IMG/VR virus record: IMGVR_UViG_2925891887_000003
Length of the DNA stretch: 55,008 nt
Strand: one strand, 5' to 3'
DNA from: a virus
Lineage: Duplodnaviria; Heunggongvirae; Uroviricota; Caudoviricetes
In this document: piece after piece, positions 1 to 42,917 of the stretch
Layout of the letters: each line of letters begins with the position of its first letter
Numbering within the stretch: the stretch's first letter is position 1
Position numbers and translations under genes: made by a program
The notes under the pieces: model-generated
What the model was told of the DNA's origin: nothing
Databases searched by the model: none
The model's input: the letters and a program-made list of their open reading frames with translations, nothing else

Positions 1-2334
1 CTATTTTGTGATTTCGAGACTGCACTTCGGTAGCCAGTCAGCATTGCATTCTTCTCTAAGTGCCAGATTGGTCTGCATTCCCTGATTGGTCCGCCGCTTC
101 TCGTACTGCAGCCCATACTCTTTCAGCATTAACGGCAACCCCTTGCCAAACATGGTCAGACTGAGCGTGTTTTTATAGCCGTTGGCTTCCATGTAGACCA
201 GATAAGCATGGTAAAGGTATGTACGAGGCTGACGTGGGACAATATTGGCGTTCCCCATAAACATGCCGTTGGTGTCAGGTAATGCCTCAAGGTAGCCACA
301 AAAATCAAATGCTGGATCAGCATCACGCTTGATGGTGAGAGCCTCATCAGAATTCTGCTGCGACTGAAGCAATGTTCTGGCGCTCATCGGATCGCTGAAA
401 CGCTGCATGAGCTGACGAACAATCACAGCCAGTTCTCGTGCAATTTTATCTTTCAGCTGCGGATCGCGTTCTTCCGGTGCTATCTGCTCAGGAAAATGCA
501 GAATAACTCTCCTGCGGGACACACCACCACTGCGATCAGTGAAGCGCATAGGATTATTATTTACGGCCAGGATAACCGCCGGAATATGTGTTGAATAAGC
601 ATTCTGATATTTGGGGTCCACAGATACTGCATCGCCACCAGTTATAGCCTTAAGCCCGGCGCCGTCGCCGCTCCACTTCTCCTGATCAGGCAGGCGAATA
701 AGAGAAAAACCTATCAGAGCCGCACGTTCTCGCGGGGACTCCAGCGTTTCAATGGTCGCAGAGGTGGCGTTATCCTCTCCAGCAAGCATGGTCGCAATTT
801 CAGCCAGAATACTTTTGCCACTTCCACCAGGGCCAGTCACTTCCAGAAAGAGCTGCCAGTCATAGCGGTTCGCCAGCACCATAAATAACGCTGCAAGAAT
901 AATGTCGCGCTTTGCTGGCTTGTGTCCGGCGGCCCGGTCCAGCCAACGCCAGAATGCCGGGGCATGAGTTTCAAGCGTTTCCCCTTTTACCGGTGGCGTG
1001 AAATCGACTTCACACACGGTACGCAGCCAGTTCTCTTTACAGTGCGGACTAAAAAGCCCTGTTCGCGTATCGAGGACGCCATTACGAAAACCAATCAGAT
1101 GACGTGCCGGATTTTGCTGCTGCGGAACAATTAACTTTAATGTTTCCACCAATGAGGCAATTTTTCCTGAGGAAAACGGTGCACCGAGGCGCTGGAAAAG
1201 GGCTGCGACATCTCGGGCAAAATCTGACTGAGAAATCACTTTCCACGCTCCAGACTCGTAGCGGGATAAAAGCTGTCCGTTCGGATCAACCGCCAGTGCA
1301 TCCCTGTAATGCTCCCGAACCCTCTGAGCTTTTTCGCTGACACTCATCGCTGTGAATTCTGCTTCACTCATTGTGTCGAAAGGACTGGCGTTATGTGGCT
1401 TCAAAGCCTCAAGAATTGCCTTCCGGGTGGATTCCTCTCCGTAATGGGCAAGCGCATCATTCCAGTCACCAAAAACCGGTGGCAGCACAATGTCACACTG
1501 ACACGCTTTTGCAGCAGCTTCAGCCCTGTTCTGGCCTGAACCATTCAGATCTCGGTCCGCTGCAATAATTAGCTGATACCCCGGATACTTGTTATGGGCA
1601 ACGCTGGCCAGAGAAAGAAAGTTGACCGACGAAAATGCCACCATGACGGCTTCTCCTGTCAGATGATGAATGGTAAGCGCCGTTGCGTAACCTTCTGCAA
1701 TCCAAACCCTTCTTACAGAACTCCCGCCCCCTTCTATCAGATGATAGGCCTCCTTAACCTGACCTCCTTTAAGAAAACACTTGCTACCATTGCCACTGAT
1801 AAGCTGAATATTCACCAGCTCCCCGTCAGCGTTATAGAGCGGGACGATCAAATCACCGGGGCGGAACATCACCCCACCGGTTTTATGAGCTGAAGTCAGC
1901 TCATGGCAAACATGCTCCGGGAAACCTTTATGTGTAAGATAAGTGTTTCCGGCAGATTCACGCGAGGCTTGCAGCAGTCGCGCGGCAAGTGCTGCCGCTG
2001 CATCTTTCCCGCTATCGGTATCGGCGGTTAACGTCCTGACTTCGGAATTAGCTATAAACAGACCATGTGTCAGTCCATGTATCCTGTCAGCTGCTTCACT
2101 GATATCCACATTCAGTGCCCTGGTGACAAGCGCTAAACCATCCCCGGCTCCGCACTGATTGCAGAACCATGTTCCGCGTCCTTCCTGATCGTCGAAGCGA
2201 AAACGATCTTTACCGCCACAGACCGGACAAGGCTGATGGCGATTTTTCAATATATTCACGCCCAGCGCTGGCAGAATCTGAGCCCAGTGACCGCGGGCAG
2301 CCTTCACGGCCTGACTGACTTTCATTCCTGACAT
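1..2334 (-). CDS. P4 alpha-like bifunctional primase/helicase (satellite replication protein)
   Basis: ORF 1..2385; likely start at internal ATG 2334 (MSGMKVSQ...), giving 777 aa. N-terminal zinc ribbon CPVCGGKDRF...WFCNQCG typical of phage primases; Walker A GPGGSGKS in the C-terminal helicase part. Stop codon at 1-3. Confidence 0.85.
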   Translation of the reverse strand: MSGMKVSQAVKAARGHWAQILPALGVNILKNRHQPCPVCGGKDRFRFDDQEGRGTWFCNQCGAGDGLALVTRALNVDISEAADRIHGLTHGLFIANSEVRTLTADTDSGKDAAAALAARLLQASRESAGNTYLTHKGFPEHVCHELTSAHKTGGVMFRPGDLIVPLYNADGELVNIQLISGNGSKCFLKGGQVKEAYHLIEGGGSSVRRVWIAEGYATALTIHHLTGEAVMVAFSSVNFLSLASVAHNKYPGYQLIIAADRDLNGSGQNRAEAAAKACQCDIVLPPVFGDWNDALAHYGEESTRKAILEALKPHNASPFDTMSEAEFTAMSVSEKAQRVREHYRDALAVDPNGQLLSRYESGAWKVISQSDFARDVAALFQRLGAPFSSGKIASLVETLKLIVPQQQNPARHLIGFRNGVLDTRTGLFSPHCKENWLRTVCEVDFTPPVKGETLETHAPAFWRWLDRAAGHKPAKRDIILAALFMVLANRYDWQLFLEVTGPGGSGKSILAEIATMLAGEDNATSATIETLESPRERAALIGFSLIRLPDQEKWSGDGAGLKAITGGDAVSVDPKYQNAYSTHIPAVILAVNNNPMRFTDRSGGVSRRRVILHFPEQIAPEERDPQLKDKIARELAVIVRQLMQRFSDPMSARTLLQSQQNSDEALTIKRDADPAFDFCGYLEALPDTNGMFMGNANIVPRQPRTYLYHAYLVYMEANGYKNTLSLTMFGKGLPLMLKEYGLQYEKRRTNQGMQTNLALREECNADWLPKCSLEITK

Positions 2335-2348
2335 GATGCAGTTCTCCC

Positions 2349-2672
2349 TCAGTGTAAAACCGGCTTTTTGATGTGACGGACGCATAACTCATCCATTACG
2401 GCTATCCCGAGCTGGGAGAGTGCGGGACAGGACATTAGAGGGCCGGATTCCATCAGGTCTGAAAGCAGGGCGCAGGCGATTTCCATGCCTTTTGTTTGCC
2501 CGTGCTGTCGCAGATAAAATCCTTCAAGCTCACGGGCAATAGCGGTTTCAATTTCATCCAGAGTGAGCTGCAGGTGGCGGTTTTGCTGATAGCAGGCACT
2601 CAACCAGGCGCAGGCTACCGCGCGGCGATACAACGCTACCCGAAGTGAAAGGGAAAGAGTGCGTGATTTCAT
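2349..2672 (-). CDS. hypothetical protein, immediately upstream of alpha in the leftward operon
   Basis: 107-aa ORF, 14 nt upstream of the alpha start, same strand; ATGA overlap with the next ORF upstream. No recognisable motif. Confidence 0.4.
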
Positions 2673-2893
2673 TGCACCACCTCCATGTTCATCAGGTCAT
2701 CCTGGCAACGCTGTACCACGCCATCAAGCTGCTCTGTCATCAGATAAATCAGGGAAACCAGTTGCTCACATTGAGCACTGGCAGGTTTTTCGTAGCAATC
2801 CTGAAGAACAGCCATTCCGGTGACAAACTCCCCCACGTTACGAAGATGCTTCAGGCGGACAATATCGTCATAAGAGATTGCGGCGTGATTCAT
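2669..2893 (-). CDS. hypothetical small protein (position of P4 epsilon-like genes)
   Basis: ORF 2669..2932; internal ATG at 2893 ([11 protein letters not shown]...) preferred. Translationally coupled to the downstream ORF. Function inferred only from position. Confidence 0.3.
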
Positions 2894-3287
2894 CACATCA
2901 CCTCCCGGACAGGCAGGCGAGCAGCAAGGCAAAGCACATATTCATGGACCAGTGAAAGACGTGCATGAGACTCATCGCTGGCGACAATACGCAGCATACT
3001 GATACGTGGTTTACGTTCTGCACGACGAACGGCGGCAAAAACAAATATAAATTGAGGATGTGATGGGGTGAGGATCGTAGCCATAAGGGCAATCTCCAAT
3101 AAGTAGCGGTTATTGCCACCACCAGAGCTGCAAATCTCATGGGTGATGGCCCGGACGGGGTTTGCAGTACCGGCCTTATTGGAAACCGGCCAGCCCGAAG
3201 GCTGCCCCGCCCGGACCACCATTATCTGACAGGAGCCACGGTGTAAGCACCACAGCCCGAAAAATAGGTGTGCCTGAGCAACGACAT

Positions 3288-3309
3288 AAAAAAACACGCT
3301 CGACGCGTG
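3288..3309 (-). terminator. intrinsic terminator downstream of the AlpA/Vis-like gene
   Basis: On the minus strand: 5-bp GC stem (CACGC/GCGTG, loop GTCGA) followed by U7 (plus-strand A-run 3288-3294). Confidence 0.45.
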
Positions 3310-3437
3310 CTGTGTCGCCAATAAGTTACACGGGCTGCAAATCCCGGCTGCCGATTTTGCGGCAGCGGAAAAACTATAACTGGAAAGGTTGCCAGGACGC
3401 AAGCCACAAAAAAAGAGATGAGACTGCAAAGCCAGAT

Positions 3438-3698
3438 TCACGCATGGACTCCTTGCTCGCGGGCTGCAATTCGCGCCGCCATCCATGCACTGACCTCCGA
3501 CTGTACCCAGGCAACATTTTTTCCACCCAGGGAGATCTGCTGCGGGAAGGCATCACGGCTGATAAGGTCGTAGATGGTTGAACGGGATAGCCCGCAAAGG
3601 TGCATCACTTCAGGTAATCGTATGAAGCGCTCCTGCTGAGTCGGAACCGGGAGCACCGGAGCAGCTGGTGCCTGGGTGGAAACGGAAATAGTATGCAT
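3438..3698 (-). CDS. AlpA/Vis-family (MerR-like) phage transcriptional regulator
   Basis: 86 aa; [49 protein letters not shown] matches the AlpA-family pattern (RLP.V....G.SRST.Y......FP....LG...V.W..SEV..W). First gene of the leftward operon, divergent from the late operon. Confidence 0.75.
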
Positions 3699-4232
3699 CT
3701 CGCTACCTCTCTAATATGTTTTCAGTAGTCCGGAGAATTCCATCCGGATTCAGGTAGTTCCTTATTATGTTTATATAAGCGGCTCGCGCATGCTTTATTT
3801 AATTAGAGTGAAATATTGCTTTCTCAAAAAATAAAACAGCTAAAAACCGGATAAAACGGACAAAAACAAATCATTCCTTCATGGAATATAATAAGGAACT
3901 TAAAGAATAAAAAAGTCTATTACACCAGGCAGGATCGCAGCTCAAGCCTGAACCAGACCATATCATTCCGGGCGTTACATCATAAGGACAAAGACGGCAC
4001 CGGAATAATAAAAGGGCCAAAAAACATCCATAAAAAACAGTTCATCATATGTATTAATTAAATTAACGACTAAAAAATTAAATTACCCGCATCCTTCCGC
4101 ATTTATCCGGATGTGTTTAATGAGCATCAGACAGATTCATTTTTATGGATATTTTCTTGAAATGCAACCGAGTGTAGGGAGGTTAAGTTTTGAATTTTCA
4201 AACAGACATAAGACACATTTTATACTGTATAT

Positions 4233-4450
4233 TGAATAGTGTTGAATACGTGTGAATAGTGGTGATGAGTAAAAATCTAGTAATAAACTGAAATAAAGAT
4301 CGCGACTCATATGAAAAACAAATATAAGTTTAAATTTATCTCTGTGAACAGTCATGAACAGTAGATGACCACTTTGATTTAAACACTACACTCCTTAATT
4401 CCATGTATTTACTATTCTTTTATAAAAGTGAACAGTAGTGAATAGTATGT
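4233..4450. repeat. cluster of at least 7 TGAAYAGT-type short repeats (candidate iterons or operator sites)
   Basis: tgaatagtg, tgaatacgtg, tgaatagtgg (4233-4260); gtgaacagtc, atgaacagtag (4345-4365); gtgaacagtag, gtgaatagtat (4429-4450). Confidence 0.5.
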
Positions 4451-4511
4451 ATTAAAGGAAGGGTGAAGATCAGACATGACACCTTTCTCTGGCTAGCCAG
4501 AACAAGGTCAT

Positions 4512-4529
4512 TGTTCAGTCACTGGCACA
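4512..4529 (+). promoter_or_regulatory. TGT-N12-ACA dyad, candidate Ogr/Delta activator site of the late promoter
   Basis: tgt tcagtcactggc aca, ~75-90 bp upstream of the Sid-like start codon; P2/P4 late promoters carry a TGT-N12-ACA element near -55. Confidence 0.4.
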
Positions 4530-4601
4530 ATCCTCATCGGTAGTGCGCTTGTATGGGCACCGGCACAATTGACTCAACAACAAAACACTACCGGAGCAGC
4601 C

Positions 4602-5354
4602 ATGACAACTGTTAACCAGATCCCTGATGTAAACATTACACCTTCCCTCCCGCCGAAAATTCGCGAAGCGGTAGAAAAAGTTAAAGCAGCAAAAGCTGTC
4701 TGGCAGGAAGAACGGCGAAAACAAACTGAAGCCGCTGCAATGACTGAAACTATCCGTAAACGTCAGGAAGATACAAAAACGGAGACGCAGGCGCTTAATG
4801 ATGAATGGCGAAACCTGTTTCGTGAGAATCAGGGGAATATGACGCCACGAATGAAAAAACTGCGGGCAGAAATCGCCCTCGGACGCGAAACACTGGATGA
4901 GTTCGAAGATTTGCTGGCAGCTCAGGCCGCAGAAAATGAATTCCTGCCATGGAAAACTGCGGATGCTGCAAACCGCTACATCAGCGAACATAATCGCCTG
5001 ATTGAAACTCATGCAGTGTGGCTCTGGAATGAGTTTATGAAGGAACACGGCCAGAAACTTATTCAGATCCTTGGACTGCTGAAAATGACTCTGGGCCGAA
5101 GCGCATCTTCTGTTATCGGTGTAGTTCATACCGTAAACGACCCCGAAAGTGTGCTGAAGCAATTTATCAGCGAGCAACTCACCACTCCGGCACTGTCCTG
5201 TAACGTATCTTCAACGGATGATATTGCCCTGCCGGGGATCAGCATTTATGCGGACGATAAAGCCATACAGGATGCCAGACAATCACCCAGCCCTGCAGCG
5301 CGTTCCCGGATGCTTAAACAGCGTGACATGGTTAAAGGGGGCGAGAAGGAATGA
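4602..5354 (+). CDS. P4 late-operon protein, possibly Sid-like capsid size determination protein
   Basis: ORF 4569..5354 (TTG); ATG at 4602 with GGAG upstream preferred (250 aa). Predicted helical and charged; first gene of the operon ending in Psu-like and Ogr/Delta genes. Sid assignment is positional only. Confidence 0.4.
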   Translation: MTTVNQIPDVNITPSLPPKIREAVEKVKAAKAVWQEERRKQTEAAAMTETIRKRQEDTKTETQALNDEWRNLFRENQGNMTPRMKKLRAEIALGRETLDEFEDLLAAQAAENEFLPWKTADAANRYISEHNRLIETHAVWLWNEFMKEHGQKLIQILGLLKMTLGRSASSVIGVVHTVNDPESVLKQFISEQLTTPALSCNVSSTDDIALPGISIYADDKAIQDARQSPSPAARSRMLKQRDMVKGGEKE

Positions 5355-5905
5355 ATACCGGAACCATTACTAAGGAAGCTCTCAACGATTACCGCGCGGC
5401 GATAAAAAGCTGGCTGACACTACGTAATGTGCAAAGTACCAGCCAGCTTCGTCTGGCGGCTTTGCTGGATACTGAAGAAAAACCCGCAGCATATGCCAGC
5501 CAACTTGAGGATCTTCGTGAGCATCTTGTACTCCTCGAATGGCAGATTAACTGTGCCGCCCGGGATGGTCTTTATGCTCACCAGATTGTGCTGGAAAGCT
5601 GTGTTACAAGCGCAACTGAAAACTTCATGAGCGAGCATGGTGATGCACTCACTGACGCTCTGGCTCCTTTTCTTTGCGCACCATACGGGCTTGAGGCGGC
5701 AATGAAAATATTACGAACCGCTGTAGCCCGACAAACGGAAGTCCGTACTCCGGTAATTTCAGCAGCATATAAGAGCATTATCGACGAAACCGGATTAACG
5801 GTGGATGCATCAATGCGCGCTGATGCTTCAGCCAGTTTCACCCCGGCACAACATAAAGTTTTCCTGGCCCGCCTTAACCGACTTAATGAAAAAGGAGTGT
5901 GCTGA
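5351..5905 (+). CDS. Psu-like (polarity suppression / capsid decoration) protein
   Basis: 184 aa; ATGA overlap with the upstream gene. Segments ALTDALAPFL and SFTPAQHKVF resemble what I recall of P4 Psu. Moderate confidence. Confidence 0.55.
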   Translation: MNTGTITKEALNDYRAAIKSWLTLRNVQSTSQLRLAALLDTEEKPAAYASQLEDLREHLVLLEWQINCAARDGLYAHQIVLESCVTSATENFMSEHGDALTDALAPFLCAPYGLEAAMKILRTAVARQTEVRTPVISAAYKSIIDETGLTVDASMRADASASFTPAQHKVFLARLNRLNEKGVC

Positions 5906-5906
5906 T

Positions 5907-6179
5907 ATGGCCCTGAAGTGTCCTGAATGTGGCGCGGTCGCTCACGCTAGAACCAGCGCCTATGAAGCTCCGTCGGTTAAACGCTCATGGTATCAGTGCC
6001 AGAGTCTGGAATGTTCCTGCACATTTACCGCACTGGAAAGCGTGGATACGATAATTATGAAGCCTCGGCGCAATGAACAGGCATCAGACAAAGCAAAAAT
6101 GCCGGAAAAACAACAGCAAACTCTCAATCGCTATGGCTCCGCGTCAAAGCTGTCAAACCGTCAGCAAATTCCTGTCTGA
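5907..6179 (+). CDS. Ogr/Delta-family zinc-finger late transcription activator
   Basis: MALKCPECGAVAHARTSAYEAPSVKRSWYQCQSLECSCTFTALESV matches the Ogr/Delta C-x2-C...C-x4-C finger pattern; AAAGGAG RBS 9 nt upstream of the ATG. Confidence 0.85.
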   Translation: MALKCPECGAVAHARTSAYEAPSVKRSWYQCQSLECSCTFTALESVDTIIMKPRRNEQASDKAKMPEKQQQTLNRYGSASKLSNRQQIPV

Positions 6180-6270
6180 TTAGCAAAATACGCCCACGAA
6201 GTCTCGGTCCAGTACCGGGATTTTTTACGCTTTTTCCCTGGCTGGCCTGAGAGCGTATGAGTGCATATCT

Positions 6271-6309
6271 ATGGCGCATGAAAACGCATGAGTCTCATGC
6301 GCCATTTTT
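6271..6309 (+). terminator. intrinsic terminator of the late operon
   Basis: Perfect 11-bp inverted repeat atggcgcatga / tcatgcgccat followed by TTTTT. Confidence 0.6.
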
Positions 6310-6383
6310 GACGCGAAAGCCCTTGTGTGGTGGCTTCTGAGACGATTTAAGGGGTGCATGAAAACCAGTCTGTTAAGCGAAGC

Positions 6384-6407
6384 GGGCAGGCGGGCGGGGC
6401 TGCGCAC
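6384..6407. other. candidate cos (cohesive end) site of the P4-like element
   Basis: GC-rich gggcaggcgggcggggctgcgcac resembles my recollection of the P2/P4 cohesive end (GGCGAGGCGGGGAAAGCAC); sits where cos is expected, between the late operon and the cargo/int region. Not verified by alignment. Confidence 0.3.
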
Positions 6408-6451
6408 GCTGAGGGGAAGTATTGAGATCGGTGAGGGGAAATCTGATTCAT

Positions 6452-6473
6452 TAAAAAGGCCGCTTTCGCGGCC
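6452..6473 (-). terminator. intrinsic terminator ending the reverse-transcriptase operon
   Basis: Minus strand: GGCCGC-GAAA-GCGGCC hairpin followed by UUUUU, ~120 nt downstream of the RT-B stop. Confidence 0.6.
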
Positions 6474-6590
6474 TGTTTAGCTAAAAGGCAATAGTGTGTC
6501 TAAATCGGTCCATCCTCAAAACGTATCGCGAATATCTTTCGGATGAACATTCAAAAGCCGATCTTCCGGTATCTGCTTCAGGTCGAAACC

Positions 6591-8630
6591 TTAGGCATCG
6601 CAACCCTTTAACGAAATTAAAATACTACTATTCATATGCTGTTCGCAACTCTTTTTTATAAAGAACGTGCTCAAGATCAGCATCTCCAGACCAGTTAAAA
6701 AGATTACATTATTTTTTAAAGAATCAATTTCAGAATCAATTACTGCATTCGTAAATCTTTTTTGACCTGTATTTGCTTCGACATATGTTCTATAAATTAT
6801 TCTCTTATGCTTAACTGTAAGATATGGGCACGTCATCATATCAAGGAATAGCATAAATGTTTCAGTGTCTTTTTTTATATCGTTCCGACCACTTATCAAA
6901 CTCTGTATAGCAAGGACAATATCTTCTTTCATTTTTAGATAGAGAACATCATCGCCTATATAGTGTAACATGCTGCATATAGAAAAATATTCTAAATCGT
7001 AAAAACACTCATTCTCACTAATACCCAACAAATCCTTAAATTCATCTGGATTGAGTTTATACTGCTCCCCCAAACCTTTCATACATATAAGTAAGTTAGA
7101 TAACTCCACTGGCCTCTCATGAATATTACCCATGCTTTTCATGCACATAAGAAGCTCATCAAAAGTATTCTTTTTTATAACTTCACTAATGTCTGAAGCT
7201 TGCTTATTAGCAAATGAATTTATTTCCAAAATAACTTGGCTAATTATGTATGTCTGTCGGACTCGAAAATCCATAGCATAAATAAAAAAAATCACCTCAT
7301 TGAATATTGAGAAGAATTTATAAGTTATATCTTCTTTTCCTGACAGATCGAACATCCTCAACAGCCTAATTACTTTGAAAAACTTACTCTTAATCGCACT
7401 TATTAAGTATGAGCTAACAAGATCAAATGTGGTATTGTTTTTTCTAACCGCAATTTTGATTCGTTTTATAAATTTGTCCGCGTGTAGCTTTTTATTCCAT
7501 ACACCTTTCAATGGAAAAAGGTTATTCATATTTTCAGGCTGAATTTTGACGTCTGGATTTAAATTAACCATAGCTGTTAACTCATCCAACTTCTCAGTAT
7601 GGATTAACGATCCATATAAATCCTCAATGATTTCTGCAATATCATTTTTAGCCATCGTGGCTCCAGTCACGAATGGCCTCTCGATAAATTCCTTTTTAGA
7701 TTCATTCAAATAAAGCTTATATTTTTCGAGTTCATTTGCCAGTACAAATTCTATTAGCTTAAATGTTTCATCATCATCCGCAAATATAAAATAATCATCA
7801 ACGTAACGTCTTATAGCATAGCTCTTATCTTTAACTATGCCTGGCTCAAGATTCAAATGAGACTCAACATTCAAGTCAACGCGCTGTAATATAATCTCCG
7901 CAAATATCCTTGAAAATTCAGGCCCAATTATTATGCCATTTGTTTCACCATAATTGGCATCTTGAAAAAGCTTATCCAAACAACCTTCAAAGCTGTTATA
8001 AGTTCTATTAACCTTAGAGAATTCTTTAGATTTTACAGCCCATGAAACGCTGTGTGTATATATATGACTAAAACACTTAGCAATATCAAGCTTTAAAAGT
8101 TTCCTAAACTTCCTTTCCAATCTATGAAATTCATATGACTCATAAAACTTATAGATGAAAGGATATTTCTTATATGAAAAATGGGAAGATGAGGAAGTTT
8201 CTTGGGAATCAAAGCCATGATTATGAAATTGTACAAGACCATCTTTTAGATTTATTCTACTTTTTAAGAAGTCCTTTTCGTAATAATAGCTCCCTATTTT
8301 GCTAGGATAACGTAGCGAAAACGGACTTTTTGTACACATATGAACCATCAAATGTTCATACTTATCATAAAAATCACAGATTCTTAACTGCGTTGAAGGA
8401 TGTATAATGCCAAGGCTTCGAGAACTCGCCAGCCCCTTTTTTATTTTATAGGAGTAAGGGATGGTATAAGAATCCAGCTTAAGGCCTTCTGAAAATGTTC
8501 CGGGTAAAACTTTATTTTCAGAAATTAACTTATAGAAACCTTCGTTAGAAAAAAGGATAGGGACTTCATATGGTAAAATATCCGTGAGAAGTACTCTTTT
8601 ATAATCACTCTTCGATATTTTAATTTTCAT
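6591..8630 (-). CDS. reverse transcriptase, large (RT-B; UG/Abi-class defence-type RT with ~390-aa C-terminal extension)
   Basis: 679 aa, ~30% GC. RT motifs: LKLDIAKCFSHIYTHSV (motif A with Asp), NGIIIGPEFSRIFAEIILQRVD (motif B), RRYVDDYFIFADD (motif C, YVDD). GGTGA RBS; start 3 nt after the RT-A stop. Confidence 0.85.
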   Translation of the reverse strand: MKIKISKSDYKRVLLTDILPYEVPILFSNEGFYKLISENKVLPGTFSEGLKLDSYTIPYSYKIKKGLASSRSLGIIHPSTQLRICDFYDKYEHLMVHMCTKSPFSLRYPSKIGSYYYEKDFLKSRINLKDGLVQFHNHGFDSQETSSSSHFSYKKYPFIYKFYESYEFHRLERKFRKLLKLDIAKCFSHIYTHSVSWAVKSKEFSKVNRTYNSFEGCLDKLFQDANYGETNGIIIGPEFSRIFAEIILQRVDLNVESHLNLEPGIVKDKSYAIRRYVDDYFIFADDDETFKLIEFVLANELEKYKLYLNESKKEFIERPFVTGATMAKNDIAEIIEDLYGSLIHTEKLDELTAMVNLNPDVKIQPENMNNLFPLKGVWNKKLHADKFIKRIKIAVRKNNTTFDLVSSYLISAIKSKFFKVIRLLRMFDLSGKEDITYKFFSIFNEVIFFIYAMDFRVRQTYIISQVILEINSFANKQASDISEVIKKNTFDELLMCMKSMGNIHERPVELSNLLICMKGLGEQYKLNPDEFKDLLGISENECFYDLEYFSICSMLHYIGDDVLYLKMKEDIVLAIQSLISGRNDIKKDTETFMLFLDMMTCPYLTVKHKRIIYRTYVEANTGQKRFTNAVIDSEIDSLKNNVIFLTGLEMLILSTFFIKKSCEQHMNSSILISLKGCDA

Positions 8631-8633
8631 GAA

Positions 8634-9830
8634 TCACCAAACCTTATTTATTTTAATAATATCTTCCCGTTTAAAAGAAGACAGTAGCCGTTTTTCAAAA
8701 CCAGCCAAAAATGAGTATTTTTTAGGCGCAGTTAATAAGTTGTGACCTGCTGCTAAAATTTTTCTCCCCACCTCGCCCTTTGAAGAAAATAGCATCCTAT
8801 TCTTAAATATATCAAGTTCCTTGAGCTGTGTTTTATCAGTTATATGTTGATAATTGTAATAAATTCCACTATATAAAGCATCAGTTTTATTACTATTGGA
8901 GTTTACTAATATATTACCAGTTAAATACTTTATTCTTTTCTTCAAGAGTTCTGCATCAGAATTATTTGAGTAATCTTTTACCGCAAGTGCAATCCTTCTT
9001 TTTATTTTCTTTATTTTCTCCTCCGAAATTCTGATCACAACATGACGACGCTGATTTTTTAATCCATGGTGTATAATAAATGAATATCCCAAAAACTCAA
9101 TTTCAGAATGTTTAGTTGAAGTGTCCTCTATGGTATACTCACTGCACTTTCTTTCATTTAAATGTAATCCATTTGGTAAAATCCTTGAAAAATAATTTTT
9201 ATAATCTGGTATTTTATAGAATGAAAAAACTATGATATCATCCACATATCTTGAAGCATAAAAAACTTCAGGCAGCCTCGCCAACTCAGCATCAAATTCC
9301 TCCATAAATATTTCTGATAAAGTCGCACTTAATCCCATACCACGGGGAAGTCCGTTATTTGCAGAGAAAGCGTTATGTTTAAAAAGACCATTGATAAATT
9401 TTTTAGTATTATGAGAAATAATCGGGTTATTATTAATTCTTTGGAAAACGATATTTTTATCTATTGATTCATAAAAACTCTTAATATCCAGCCTGTAAAT
9501 ATAATAATTTACAGGCTCACTTAACACTGTATTTACTTTTTTTATGATGTCATGTCTGTTGTTTTGTTTAACACTATACACACGCTTAATGTTATCATTT
9601 ATTTTCCTGGCGACAAGTACATCCATAAAATCTTTAAATATATACACATTTTTGTTGTTAATTCTTGAATTTGAGATCGAACCAAATGAGTATGTTTCAA
9701 TTGAGCCATTAACTTTATCAGCTATATATTTTTTATATTCAGCTGAATTCCTACCAATTTTGTATCTTTTTGGATCGGTTTTTTTTAAAAGCTTAATTAA
9801 GTTCGAAACGGAAAATGACTGGTTTAACAT
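8634..9830 (-). CDS. reverse transcriptase, small (RT-A; UG/Abi-class defence-type RT)
   Basis: ORF track starts at GTG 9863 (overlapping int); ATG at 9830 with AAGGGG RBS preferred (398 aa). Motifs: YRLDIKSFYESID (A), GLPRGMGLSATLSEIFMEEFD (B), YASRYVDDIIVFS (C, YVDD). AT-rich. Confidence 0.85.
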   Translation of the reverse strand: MLNQSFSVSNLIKLLKKTDPKRYKIGRNSAEYKKYIADKVNGSIETYSFGSISNSRINNKNVYIFKDFMDVLVARKINDNIKRVYSVKQNNRHDIIKKVNTVLSEPVNYYIYRLDIKSFYESIDKNIVFQRINNNPIISHNTKKFINGLFKHNAFSANNGLPRGMGLSATLSEIFMEEFDAELARLPEVFYASRYVDDIIVFSFYKIPDYKNYFSRILPNGLHLNERKCSEYTIEDTSTKHSEIEFLGYSFIIHHGLKNQRRHVVIRISEEKIKKIKRRIALAVKDYSNNSDAELLKKRIKYLTGNILVNSNSNKTDALYSGIYYNYQHITDKTQLKELDIFKNRMLFSSKGEVGRKILAAGHNLLTAPKKYSFLAGFEKRLLSSFKREDIIKINKVW

Positions 9831-9831
9831 A

Positions 9832-11010
9832 TTATAACCCCTTTTTTTTGCGAAGATAATCACTGTACCATTGCATCATCTTCTGCCTTTCCATAAGGTA
9901 TATGGCATGATTATAAGTTCCTCTTATATTATTTCTATCAACATGAGCTAATTGGACTTCAATAAATGCTGATTGAAAACCTTCTTCATGCAAAATTGTT
10001 GATAACATATGTCTGAACCCGTGACCAGTGAGTCGGCCTTCGTAACCGATACGCTTGATAACTTGATTTATGCTAGCTTCGCTCATCGGTTTGTTCGGAT
10101 CGTTCCGTCCTGGAAAAACATAACGATAGTTCCCTGTCATTATCTTGAGTTCATGGAGTAAATCTAACGCTTGGGTCGACAATGGCACAAGATGCGGCCT
10201 GCGCATTTTCATCCTTTCAGCAGGAATTTCCCAAATAGCGTTATCCAGATCAAATTCTTGCCATAATGCCGCGCGTAATTCGATGGTTCTCACGCCCGTA
10301 ATCATCAGTAATTTCGTTGCTATCTGGACAAGCTTACTCCCGGTGTAACTCTCTAAGGCACGCAGAAATTCGGGTATCTCATCAGCTTTTAGGAACGGGA
10401 AATGATTGGATTGGTGCACTTCGAGAGCGCTGGAAAGATCTGCCGCAGGATTGTACTCCGCTCTACCCGTTGCAATTGCGTAGCGAAACACTTCAGAGCA
10501 ACGCTGACGCACTTTCCGCATTTTCTCCAACGCACCACGTTTCTCAATTTTACGCAGTACGTTCAGCAGCTCTAGCGGTTTAATCTCACTCACAGGCCTT
10601 GTTCCAACATAAGGAAAAATGTCGTTCTTAAACGCTTCCATGATGTCTGATGCATATCCTGCCGACCATTTAGCAGATTTAAGTTGATGCCACTCTCTGG
10701 CTATCTTTTCGAAGGCGTTCTCTGACTCTGCTTGCAGAGCCAGCTTTTGCTCTTTTCGAACATCACTAGGGTTCTTTCCTTCTGCCACAAGTTTTCGAGC
10801 TTCATCACGACGGGAACGAGCATCGGCAAGAGTGATCGTTGGGTAAACGCCAAGCGAGATCATCTTGGGTTTACCGGCATAGCGATAGCGGAACCGCCAG
10901 CTCTTGCTTCCATTAGGTTCTATAAGCAATGACAAGCCTTGCCCATCCCCAAGCGTATAGGGTTTATCTTCAGGCTTAGCGCGGCGAATCTGCATATCGT
11001 TTAAAGGCAT
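9832..11010 (-). CDS. int: P4-type tyrosine integrase
   Basis: 392 aa; N-terminus MPLNDMQIRRAKPEDKPYTLGDGQGLSL... typical of P4-family integrases; C-terminal HGFRHM...RGTYNHAIY catalytic region. Adjacent to the duplicated thrW 3' segment. Confidence 0.9.
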   Translation of the reverse strand: MPLNDMQIRRAKPEDKPYTLGDGQGLSLLIEPNGSKSWRFRYRYAGKPKMISLGVYPTITLADARSRRDEARKLVAEGKNPSDVRKEQKLALQAESENAFEKIAREWHQLKSAKWSAGYASDIMEAFKNDIFPYVGTRPVSEIKPLELLNVLRKIEKRGALEKMRKVRQRCSEVFRYAIATGRAEYNPAADLSSALEVHQSNHFPFLKADEIPEFLRALESYTGSKLVQIATKLLMITGVRTIELRAALWQEFDLDNAIWEIPAERMKMRRPHLVPLSTQALDLLHELKIMTGNYRYVFPGRNDPNKPMSEASINQVIKRIGYEGRLTGHGFRHMLSTILHEEGFQSAFIEVQLAHVDRNNIRGTYNHAIYLMERQKMMQWYSDYLRKKKGL

Positions 11011-11011
11011 G

Positions 11012-38304: not shown

Positions 38305-38655
38305 TCACTTAAGCCGTTCACGGGCCGTCTTCGCCTTATGACACGGCCAGCACAAACTCTGCAGATTGCAGTCAGCATCAGTGCCGCCATGCGCTTTAGG
38401 GATAATGTGGTCAACGGTTTTCGCCTCACGCACCACACCGGCACGCAGGCACAACTGGCACAGGCCTTTGTCACGCTTCAGGACACGCGCGCGGATACTG
38501 ACCCACTTCGAACCGTAGCCGCGCTGATGACGGGATTGTCCAGGTTTGTATTGCTTCCAGCCTTCGCTTTTGTGGCTTTCGCAATAGCCTGACGGGTCAG
38601 TTGTGGTATGGCGGCAGCCGCGAACACGGCAGGCTCTGGGGATTAAGGCAGGCAT
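38305..38655 (-). CDS. HNH endonuclease (packaging-associated)
   Basis: 116 aa; CxxC...DHIIPKAHGGTDADCNLQSLCWPCHKAK; classic position just upstream of the terminase genes. Confidence 0.8.
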   Translation of the reverse strand: MPALIPRACRVRGCRHTTTDPSGYCESHKSEGWKQYKPGQSRHQRGYGSKWVSIRARVLKRDKGLCQLCLRAGVVREAKTVDHIIPKAHGGTDADCNLQSLCWPCHKAKTARERLK

Positions 38656-38928
38656 GAGAAATCGACTCGTTTAACTCTTCTCTGTCTACAACGCAAATCA
38701 CAAACTCCGCATTCTTCCCTCCATTAAAACTGAATATTGAAGAGGGACTATGAAAAAAGATTATTTAATCAATCTGATAATCAATATCTTACTTAAGATG
38801 ATAATAAAGCTTTGCGCAAATTGGATATTGGAACACTTCCACATATGGTTGAACAATCTGCTGTCTTACATGAGCTGACACTGTTCATCCGCACACGAGC
38901 GGTGTGGTAGGCATATTGATTCGAGCGC

Positions 38929-39426
38929 TTATGAATGCAGCCCGGGTATTGTGAGCTGCAGCTGGGTAGCCAGGTTACTAATTTCAGCCATCAGAACTGG
39001 CTTGGTGTAACGCCAAGCAGCCAGTCCCTGCCCGCAAAAGCTCGCCATATCTTTCTTCTGATCAAACTCGTGACACTTCATATTGAGCTGTGCACTTAAG
39101 CTGCTGCGATGCTGAAGCTCTCCGGTGAAGTAGTCATCGAGGACTTTATAGGCTGCATATTTAAATTCAGGGTTTAGCCATGCTGCGTAATCATAAGCAA
39201 CGAACTTTCCTCCATAAGTTCCACCGTGCACACCGCGTTCCGTAAAAACCACAGATTCGTGGTTTTTCTCCAGCTCAGCCAAGAACTCTTTGGTCTGCTT
39301 GTTTCGCAGGTAGTGGTACGGCGATTCAGATTCACTTTTACCACTAGCTTTCCACATGTCAGTGAGGCAGATCATTCCTGATTCATCAACACGGATCGGT
39401 GTATTAAAAAGCGTGATTGCTTTCAT
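38929..39426 (-). CDS. KilA-N domain protein
   Basis: ORF 38929..39609; internal ATG at 39426 (MKAITLFNTPIRV...) with AAGG RBS preferred; ...GTYGGKFVAYDYAAWLNPEFKYAAYKVL matches the KilA-N core. Confidence 0.55.
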   Translation of the reverse strand: MKAITLFNTPIRVDESGMICLTDMWKASGKSESESPYHYLRNKQTKEFLAELEKNHESVVFTERGVHGGTYGGKFVAYDYAAWLNPEFKYAAYKVLDDYFTGELQHRSSLSAQLNMKCHEFDQKKDMASFCGQGLAAWRYTKPVLMAEISNLATQLQLTIPGLHS

Positions 39427-40030: not shown

Positions 40031-40498
40031 CTAATATGAACACTGTGATCTCACATACTCTTGCAGGCCATTCAATTGGTTAGTTATGGTTTCAATGCGC
40101 TCTCTGAGAACGAAATAATCCCGTTGAGCGGTGTCAGTAAGTCTGGGGCTGGAGCCATCATCCACGCCGGAGGCGGCGGTGATTTTATGCATGTCGGGAC
40201 AGACTGCTTTGACGCGCAGCCACTTACGGCCAGCAGAAACATCAGCACGGAGACTTTCGATAGTCGCGTTAGCATCAGCAAGCTCCTTTGTATATCTGGC
40301 GTCAAGTTCTGCTACGTCACGTTGACGCTTCTGCATATCAGAGAGCGTCGCCATAGCCGAATCTAATGCCATTGCGTTTTCGTCGCGCTGCTTTTTGTAT
40401 TCAATGGCTTTATTGTGGTAATGATTCGCTGAAAAGATAAAAGAACCAATGACAGTAACGAAGAAAGCAGCGATAACCAACTTATAGCTCAACTTCAT
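40031..40498 (-). CDS. Rz-like i-spanin
   Basis: 155 aa; N-terminal TM helix then a coiled-coil periplasmic domain; follows the endolysin gene. Confidence 0.8.
   Translation of the reverse strand: MKLSYKLVIAAFFVTVIGSFIFSANHYHNKAIEYKKQRDENAMALDSAMATLSDMQKRQRDVAELDARYTKELADANATIESLRADVSAGRKWLRVKAVCPDMHKITAASGVDDGSSPRLTDTAQRDYFVLRERIETITNQLNGLQEYVRSQCSY
40084..40275 (-). CDS. Rz1-like o-spanin lipoprotein (embedded in Rz, +1 frame)
   Basis: Embedded ORF with lipobox LLAVSGC and a Pro-rich tail (SPPPPAW). Confidence 0.65.
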   Translation of the reverse strand: MLTRLSKVSVLMFLLAVSGCASKQSVPTCIKSPPPPAWMMAPAPDLLTPLNGIISFSESALKP

Positions 40499-41585: not shown

Positions 41586-42917
41586 ATGTTAGATACACTA
41601 TCTTTCACTGAACGTGACGAGTTCCAACGAAGAAACATCGCTGAAAATATCATCAAGTTGCTAAAACCAGAGGCAGACATTTCACCACTGGTAATAGACG
41701 GCGCATGGGGAACAGGGAAAACAGAATTTAGTATCAAACTGAAAAATCTCATTATTGAGCAAGAAACTGAATCTAAAGTTGTTTATATTGATGCCTTTAA
41801 AGGGGATCATGCAGAATCTCCATTACTTCTCATAACCTCTGCAATTGCCAGCATTTTGCCTGAGGAAGAAAAACAACACTTCATTAAGCGATCTCTTCCT
41901 GCAATTCGCTTTGGTTTAAAAACGGTACTAAAAGCTGGTGCAGGTTGGTTTTTACGACAGGAGGCTAGTGAAGTTGCCGAAGAATTCCAAGATGCGATGA
42001 AGAAAGCAAGCAATGCAGCAATAGATGGGACTATTGAAAATTTGCTTGAAGACCATATGGACTCAGAGAAAAACATAAATTCACTTAAATCCTGCATCGA
42101 AAGCATATCAAAAAATCAAAAAATCGTAATTATAATTGATGAATTAGACCGATGTAAGCCGAGTTTTTCAACAAATGTCATTGAAACAATAAAACACATT
42201 TTTGACATCAATAATGTCTTTTTTATTTTAGTTACAAACACAGAACAATTAAAAGCATCTATAAATCATATTTATGGTTATAGCATTAACTCACAAAAGT
42301 ATCTTGACAAGTTTATAAAATATACCATCACGCTTCCAGATACATGTTTGATAAATGGTCACAACGTATGTAAAGCCTCTGTTATATATTGGGATTACCT
42401 TGTAGAAAAAACAAGATTATTGAATAAAATCAATAGATTATCAGGTTGCTTTATCCGTGATTTAATTCAACGAACCAACTTATCATTACGTGAAACACAA
42501 ACATTTTCACGCAATCTTAACATTTTTCAACTGTTAAACGACGATGAGAACAAAAGCAGTGATCCTTTAATAAATATGATCTTTGTCGTAGCTGCCTTCA
42601 TACATTGCTTTGGTAACAAGGAAAAACTAAAACAAGAAATTACCGCTGAATCTATATCTTATTTAGCAGACCTGCTTAACATAAAAGAAATACCTTATTC
42701 TTATGAGAGAAGATCGCAAATCCCTGAAATATCCATTGTATTCTTCGGAATAATTAAAGACAGTATTACTCTTAATGAGCGATTTGCCCCTAAAAGTGAT
42801 GAAGAACTTAAAAAATTCACAAATGTTTATACTGATTATGAACACATAAATTTTTGGAGTACTACACCCAGAGAGTTATTGATAAAATATATTAATCAAA
42901 TGTCATTCATCCAGTAA
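41586..42917 (+). CDS. KAP-family P-loop NTPase (moron)
   Basis: 443 aa, AT-rich, opposite strand to its neighbours; Walker A IDGAWGTGKTEF and Walker B IIIDELDRC, the pattern of KAP NTPases. Confidence 0.75.
   Translation: MLDTLSFTERDEFQRRNIAENIIKLLKPEADISPLVIDGAWGTGKTEFSIKLKNLIIEQETESKVVYIDAFKGDHAESPLLLITSAIASILPEEEKQHFIKRSLPAIRFGLKTVLKAGAGWFLRQEASEVAEEFQDAMKKASNAAIDGTIENLLEDHMDSEKNINSLKSCIESISKNQKIVIIIDELDRCKPSFSTNVIETIKHIFDINNVFFILVTNTEQLKASINHIYGYSINSQKYLDKFIKYTITLPDTCLINGHNVCKASVIYWDYLVEKTRLLNKINRLSGCFIRDLIQRTNLSLRETQTFSRNLNIFQLLNDDENKSSDPLINMIFVVAAFIHCFGNKEKLKQEITAESISYLADLLNIKEIPYSYERRSQIPEISIVFFGIIKDSITLNERFAPKSDEELKKFTNVYTDYEHINFWSTTPRELLIKYINQMSFIQ

Follow-up and report, generated by a model that had tools for sequence, protein, structure and literature searches.

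Our analysis suggests that a short gap in the late region of an E. coli lambdoid prophage may hold a small protein-coding gene. The open reading frame (ORF) concerned lies at 38750-38878 on the plus strand of the window, by which we mean the whole stretch of 55,008 nucleotides that was analysed, and consists of 42 codons followed by a TGA stop, with the product MKKDYLINLIINILLKMIIKLCANWILEHFHIWLNNLLSYMS. Translation of this interval reproduced the coordinates, strand, 42-aa length and peptide given in an earlier note on this DNA. We put at roughly 45% the probability that the ORF is a genuine and complete small gene, an orphan confined to one lineage, that encodes a 42-residue membrane peptide with a single helix.

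Results

The gap and its setting in the prophage

In the window, a P4-like satellite precedes an SfI/e14-like lambdoid prophage, whose late genes all lie on the minus strand in the order Q, holin, lysozyme, Rz, DUF6979, KilA-N, gap, HNH, terS (P27 family), terL and portal. The gap (38656-38928) measures 273 bp, in agreement with the ~270 bp between minus-strand genes of the earlier note, and has a GC content of 38%. It is bounded by the gene for an HNH endonuclease (38305-38655, minus strand), the last late gene before cos, and by that for a KilA-N domain protein (38929-39426, minus strand), which lies upstream in the late-strand direction. Both genes are annotated by PGAP in the matching RefSeq record of E. 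coli PC-NDM34, which is 100% identical to the window over 38600-38980 and in which no feature is called in the gap, so that the ORF is indeed unannotated. The AT-rich core of the gap, at 27-30% GC, largely corresponds to the ORF (30% GC). Taken over its first 50 kb, the window differs from the PC-NDM34 segment (NZ_CP082120.1 3735575-3785574; L105), yet the gene coordinates coincide.

The ORF is oriented antisense to the late transcript, and the gap lies upstream of the last late gene. In the SfI family the HNH gene is the last one before cos, and the genome is written from terS on (PMC3851460). The SfI record stops about 75 bp beyond its HNH gene, which places cos between HNH and terS; the gap was rejected as a cos site by this homology.

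The base composition of the ORF is phased by codon

The length of the ORF does not set it apart. An ATG-initiated ORF of at least 42 aa was found in 27% of dinucleotide shuffles of the gap (P=0.27), the other frames of the same stretch are open for 30-33 codons, and in the first 50 kb of the window 184 ATG ORFs of 40-80 aa are without annotation, of which 12 have a Shine-Dalgarno (SD) 4-mer (one of these 12 is evidently Rz1). An ORF of at least 42 aa together with an SD 4-mer occurred in 1.3% of the shuffled gaps (P 0.013). The 1.3% counts in favour of a gene; the other figures, along with the lack of homologues described below, are what speaks for the fallback reading of the earlier note, a pure chance ORF in AT-rich intergenic DNA.

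The distribution of GC within the ORF argues against that reading. GC contents at codon positions 1, 2 and 3 are 0.24, 0.14 and 0.52 (Fisher P 2e-4). Dinucleotide shuffles gave this bias a P of 8e-4, stop-free shuffles 1e-3, and 26 million permutations 2e-4, which became 4e-4 on conditioning on the hydrophobicity of the peptide. Periodicity and hydrophobicity jointly reached P 7e-6 among stop-free permutations, although the P-values for periodicity are somewhat optimistic since an internal 24-nt repeat (see below) makes the codons not fully independent. When sliding windows of 126 nt were run through the other 11 intergenic regions of the first 50 kb, none of 3391 reached a phase bias of 0.30, and the maximum over all intergenic windows falls in the ORF gap, exactly at the start codon at 38750; 3.4% of genic windows are this extreme. 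The GC3 of 52% lies within the range of the neighbouring genes (0.43-0.62). The bias is kept in the last 21 codons (0.29/0.29/0.67) and absent from both flanks, which suggests that the stop codon is native and does not mark the truncation of a longer gene. Because the AT-richness is phased by codon and begins at the ATG, and the SD and ATG stay unchanged in otherwise variable surroundings (see below), a chance origin is disfavoured and we regard it as improbable.

On the minus strand, the frame whose third positions coincide with those of the ORF stays open over only 34 codons and has no ATG, SD or homologue. A relic of a late-strand gene was rejected on the grounds that this reading has no homologue and no similarity to the 67-aa ORF found in the corresponding slot of SfI.

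Distribution and variation of the gap

The gap is carried by five of 5426 complete E. coli genomes, by three IMG/VR contigs and by a number of Logan and NCBI assemblies, and its two flanking genes are the same in every case. None of 88 loci encoding KilA-N relatives has it in a new context, matches in phage records are limited to the start of HNH, and exact-pattern metagenome scans gave no match. With about 1000 index blocks of the assembly collection listing the exact KilA-N protein, the prophage type cannot be called vanishingly rare; the exact HNH protein is listed in about 600. The 25 loci that were fetched yielded six gap haplotypes and five peptide variants, all at least 93.7% identical; an error-ridden assembly (L117, via P0014) and a locus ending at the KilA-N stop codon (L118, via P0002) were excluded from the haplotypes. 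The ORF is intact in 25 of 25 loci and in all six haplotypes. At 38855 (codon 36), the window type has A and four other haplotypes have C (N36H); a third allele, G (N36D), is implied by P0014/L117 and is untrustworthy given the errors in that assembly.

The ribosome binding site reported previously, AAGAGGG, is present at 38740-38746, with a spacing slightly shorter than the 5 nt then given: it ends 3 nt (ACT) before the ATG, or 4 nt if counted from the GAGG core. Among the 23 bases at 38739-38761, seven are variable (38739, 38741, 38747-38749, 38759 and 38761) and none of these falls in the SD core GAGGG (38742-38746, plus strand) or in the ATG, both of which are constant across haplotypes. 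In one divergent haplotype the SD is changed to AGGAGG (AGGAGGG in full). By our own hypergeometric estimate, made post hoc, the sparing of the eight SD and ATG bases has a P of ~0.026. The 56 nt just upstream of the ORF (38683-38738) are likewise constant in all 25 copies, with variable bases on either side, and no promoter, structure or motif was found to explain this constancy.

The substitutions within the ORF look neutral. Between the window and the L007 haplotype there are five nonsynonymous changes and one synonymous change (pN/pS about 1.0), against a pN/pS of 0.05-0.11 for HNH and KilA-N in the same comparison, and two of the seven variable ORF sites are at codon position 3. Our own binomial estimate, which rests on few events, rejects an omega of 0.1 or below (P about 0.016) and is compatible with 0.3-0.5. 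Nucleotide divergence of the ORF is 4.7%, compared with 8.5-10% in the gap flanks and 13-25% at the synonymous sites of the neighbours. This low value hints at some constraint; the mutability of AT-rich DNA or the recombination history is an equally good explanation. The earlier note had named a lack of conservation in related prophages as evidence against its proposal. The ORF is in fact conserved, but within one shallow clade whose members are at least 93.7% identical, and without a signature of purifying selection.

The main rival to our reading is that the ORF is an inactive relic or a not-yet-functional proto-gene, neither transcribed nor selected in this prophage, that arose from a coding sequence or by internal AT-rich duplication. 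It is the account that best fits the neutral substitutions and the missing promoter. In its favour are a pN/pS of about 1 with changes spread evenly over codon positions, the failure to find a promoter or terminator, the rare codons (five of the eight Ile codons are ATA, a rare Ile codon in E. coli), the orphan status and the 24-nt internal duplication, and copies this similar have had too little divergence for decay to yield stop codons yet. It accounts less well for an SD core and ATG spared amid so many changed bases, with an SD that was improved once, for an ORF divergence about half that of the gap flanks and 3-5x below the synonymous divergence of the neighbours, or for a frame that is intact in every haplotype. 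On balance we judge this account unlikely, if still the most serious competitor to a genuine gene.

The predicted peptide and its lack of relatives

The peptide is predicted to form one hydrophobic helix with a Lys-Lys N-terminus. Its best 19-residue Kyte-Doolittle window scores 1.92, in the top 1.7% of null ORFs, and AlphaFold models a single helix over residues 2-41 with a pLDDT of 92.6, a result that is not decisive because any hydrophobic 42-mer would give such a helix. The hydrophobicity follows from the dominance of T at codon position 2. Polar residues occupy every fourth position (D4, N8, N12, K16, K20, N24 and E28), with a post hoc permutation P of about 1e-5 that is somewhat optimistic on account of the internal repeat. 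The period of this ladder is 4.0 and the hydrophobic moment peaks at 90 rather than 100 degrees, so the helix would not be a classic amphipathic alpha-helix. Part of the ladder stems from the repeat, a direct repeat of 24 nt on the plus strand (TTAATCAATCTGATAATCAA at 38765-38784 and TTACTTAAGATGATAATAAA at 38789-38808) with 75% identity between copies, which encode LINLIIN and LLKMIIK; lags of 12 and 24 give autocorrelations of 0.385 and 0.419. A tandem repeat was rejected, as TRF reports none and there is a single 24-nt pair at 75% only. The lysines are K2, K3, K16 and K20, and the C-terminal 14 residues include His and no Lys or Arg. By our own reading of the sequence the peptide has no lipobox, its sole Cys being within IKLC.

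Searches for relatives returned the peptide's own variant and little else. No match was found by tblastn against phages and plasmids, and both a search of 5.8 billion protein sequences (90% clusters) and an exhaustive HMMER search of 1.84 billion representatives found only a 90% variant of the peptide itself (P0001). Pfam and NCBIfam gave no match at E up to 10, the best match in PHROGs (E=0.23) was to a family of unknown function, and a literature search with the peptide string was empty. A blastn match to a Staphylococcus plasmid (79% over 62 nt, E=6e-3) lies out of frame in a DUF1430 gene and was rejected as chance similarity between AT-rich sequences; a match in Acinetobacter was likewise rejected as chance.

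The gap is part of an exchangeable cassette

We compared the window with 80 IMG/VR and 8 GTDB loci that encode close KilA-N relatives. Homology of these loci to the window breaks off at 38939, short of the KilA-N stop codon by ten bases. In four that have the same HNH gene (L023, L026, L028 and L034), it restarts at 38644, within HNH codon 4. The window thus carries an allelic cassette of 294 bp (38645-38938), made up of the last KilA-N codons, the ORF-bearing gap and HNH codons one to four, where these four loci have 628 bp between the same KilA-N and HNH. The 628-bp segment contains an 85-aa gene on the same strand (phrog_875) and, judged by eye from the sequence, a terminator-like hairpin. 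Other fillings upstream of this HNH type are iss, on the opposite strand, and a GrlR-like gene; in E. coli G6/7, iss lies between Rz and this HNH type. Sequences are swapped between the lysis module and this HNH type, at sharp junctions that fall within the ends of KilA-N and HNH, and the ORF is the sole cargo of the 294-bp cassette. The intervals compared were 38645-38938 in the window, 2989-3616 in L023, 3082-3375 in L103 and 2649-2969 in L104.

The cassette has no detectable similarity to the other slot alleles or to the rest of the window, and when the gap was compared by blastn-short with the iss locus (L103), only chance words of 10-11 nt appeared; an origin as a remnant of iss/bor or of an alternative slot allele was rejected for this lack of similarity. 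In SfI (L102, JX509734) the DUF6979 gene and HNH are separated by a 386-bp gap. This gap contains an unannotated 67-aa ORF (L102 492-695) on the minus (late) strand with two hydrophobic segments (MKILWVISLLCSAIGFIEGILGVFG...), so that small membrane ORFs may be a recurrent feature of the slot; no similarity was seen between this ORF and the window peptide.

Expression signals and RNA structure

No sigma-70-like promoter was found at 9/12 matches on either strand of the gap. Within 400 nt upstream of the ORF there was none at 8/12 apart from one poor site at 38338, and none was convincing at 7/12. No terminator was found downstream of 38878 or within the gap. On the minus strand, promoter-like sites reach 8/12 at best, lie inside the ORF and have no terminator. 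An Rfam search of the gap returned noise only, with no sRNA or RNA element, and the folding of the whole gap was not significant against shuffles on either strand (z 0.06 for minus, -1.3 for plus). The gap was rejected as an RNA element, given the Rfam noise and folding no better than that of shuffles.

A hairpin that could sequester the SD is possible at 38716-38747 on the plus strand, where UCCCUC (38716-38721) pairs with GAGGGA (38742-38747) in a 6-bp stem with a 20-nt loop. It folds with -8.5 kcal/mol in the window (z -0.6, not significant), -11.4 in L007 (z -2.4) and -11.1 in AVS0655 (z -1.6), the variant bases strengthening the SD-pairing stem. The same hairpin forms on the minus-strand (late) RNA. 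On that strand a GGAGG (38722-38718), which is part of the minus-strand version of the SD hairpin, is followed at proper spacing by a mini-ORF (38698-38712, minus; AUG CGG AGU UUG UGA, MRSL*) 43 nt upstream of the HNH start.

The earlier note had compared the composition of the peptide to that of small membrane toxins. Its hydrophobic, membrane-peptide character is borne out by the Kyte-Doolittle and AlphaFold results; the toxin part is not, as there is no family match in Pfam, NCBIfam or PHROGs, and the peptide belongs by these searches to none of the described families (Hok, Ldr, TisB, Ibs, ShoB, DinQ, ZorO, Fst and others). A specific form of this idea is a membrane-associated type I toxin whose translation is repressed in two ways, through sequestration of the SD and through an antisense RNA (the late transcript or a dedicated sRNA). 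Like the type I toxins TisB, Hok, Ldr, ZorO and BsrG (PMC8309996), the peptide is hydrophobic, is shorter than 60 aa and has a single predicted alpha-helix; the SD may pair with a complement upstream (CCCUCC), and antisense transcription is available from the late operon, though not as a dedicated sRNA. It also shares a prophage location with BsrG and YonT. Unlike those systems, the ORF has no sequence or family match, and the antisense RNA for which the earlier note had proposed a search did not emerge: Rfam and motif scans found no antisense sRNA gene and no antisense promoter and terminator pair (the minus-strand sites at 8/12 are inside the ORF), nor was a promoter found for a toxin mRNA. 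The hairpin, strengthened by variant bases in other haplotypes, falls short of significance in the window haplotype. Whereas the cationic residues of type I toxins are generally in the C-terminal domain (PMC8309996), those of the ORF peptide are N-terminal and mid-helix. Membership of the type I toxins is not supported, and we consider such a system quite unlikely here.

The same data bear on the idea that a DNA or RNA element of the late (minus) strand is what functions here, be it a 5' leader, an internal promoter for HNH and terminase or an AT-rich tract bound by a protein, with the ORF incidental to it. Consistent with such an element are the invariance of the 56 nt upstream of the ORF, a divergence of the gap below that of the neighbours' synonymous sites, GATAAT/GATATT motifs spaced by 24 nt (38775, 38799 and 38823) and the weak promoter-like minus-strand sites in the AT-rich core. 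It would, however, leave the codon-phase periodicity unexpected, since neither a binding site nor a leader calls for it; minus-strand structure is not significant and Rfam is empty, cos by homology with SfI lies beyond HNH, no homologue was found for the minus-strand reading, and relatives with the same HNH have the wholly different 628-bp sequence. We regard a late-strand element as very unlikely.

Discussion

The picture of a genuine small gene for a membrane peptide draws on a composition phased from the start codon to the stop codon and on an SD and ATG that have stayed constant in a changing patch. The ORF resembles the lambda bor and iss morons in several respects. It occupies the same slot between Rz and cos, is directed opposite to the late operon and differs in composition from its surroundings. 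The bor and iss genes encode lipoproteins of about 97 aa, whereas the peptide described here has 42 residues and no lipobox, and the ORF has no homology to them and no detectable promoter or terminator. Morons are classically defined, in the sense of Hendrix and Juhala, by features that include a promoter and a factor-independent terminator of their own. The cassette shows the extra or differently filled DNA between genes that are adjacent in relatives, as well as the distinct composition (30% GC for the ORF and 47-58% for its neighbours, a difference confined to codon positions 1 and 2); the promoter was not found within 400 nt upstream, nor the factor-independent terminator after 38878.

Small prophage membrane proteins are known to exclude superinfecting phage, as HK97 gp15 does. 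The ORF product may be comparable to these exclusion proteins as small, membrane-spanning accessory cargo in the late region of a temperate phage that is useful in the lysogen only; it differs from them in lacking homology and in having a single predicted helix. A different parallel is offered by yeast, where membrane peptides that arose de novo from T-rich or AT-rich non-genic DNA have been described. Similarly, our ORF is an orphan, is hydrophobic through its T-dominated second codon positions, has been lengthened by a short internal duplication and shows neutral-looking substitutions. In contrast to the yeast cases, its GC3 of 52% in an ORF of 30% GC points to a coding history, and no non-coding precursor sequence was found.

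How such a gene might act can be sketched as follows. Since the ORF points against the late operon, it would be expressed only outside late transcription, that is, in the lysogen. After induction, Q-dependent late transcription through the ORF would silence it by antisense interference. Pairing of the upstream CCCUCC with the SD and the five ATA codons may together keep output low. The peptide would insert in the inner membrane with its Lys-Lys N-terminus in the cytoplasm, might self-associate through the polar ladder (N8, N12, K16, K20, N24 and E28), and could act either by perturbing the membrane, as a toxin would, or by blocking an incoming phage in the manner of an exclusion protein. We give little credence to a further reading, in which the peptide is a membrane effector (toxin or exclusion factor) restricted to lysogeny that has no dedicated antitoxin, is shut off by Q-dependent antisense transcription and arose recently through internal duplication of a short AT-rich unit. 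If that were true, the ORF would be a recently born orphan gene, seen early in its history within a prophage cargo slot.

Small hydrophobic orphan ORFs that lack annotation are already known from phage accessory slots, and the present one would be no surprise to specialists. If translated, it would be one more small orphan membrane protein that E. coli prophages carry as accessory cargo without annotation, of a kind that standard annotation pipelines miss. PGAP and the gene calls of the collections skip the haplotype of the window type, and only the AGGAGG haplotype is called, in Logan assemblies. A translated ORF would also make a compact test case, with a 294-bp cassette, a single gene of 42 codons, alternative alleles and, through its orientation, late transcription as an inherent antisense regulator. 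Without translation, it would serve as a caution that a good SD, an ATG, hydrophobicity and codon-phased composition can persist where there is no present function.

Some features outside the gap were also seen. The P4-like satellite upstream of the prophage (1-11011 of the window) encodes a primase-helicase, an Icd-like protein, polarity suppression proteins, Ogr/Delta and an integrase, and adjoining the integrase gene are the antiviral reverse transcriptases Drt3a and Drt3b. Within the prophage, a gene for a KAP family NTPase (41586-42917, plus strand) lies on the opposite strand between the antiterminator Q and holin genes; it is AT-rich (GC 33%, GC3 28%) and looks like a moron or defence-type cargo in the Q-to-lysis slot. 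Inside Rz (40031-40498), in the +1 frame, is a further ORF on the minus strand that PGAP does not annotate, at 40084-40275 if started from ATG or extending to 40305 if started from TTG. With an AAGGAG SD, a lipobox-like LLAVSGC and a Pro-rich tail, this ORF is evidently Rz1, in the classic o-spanin arrangement.
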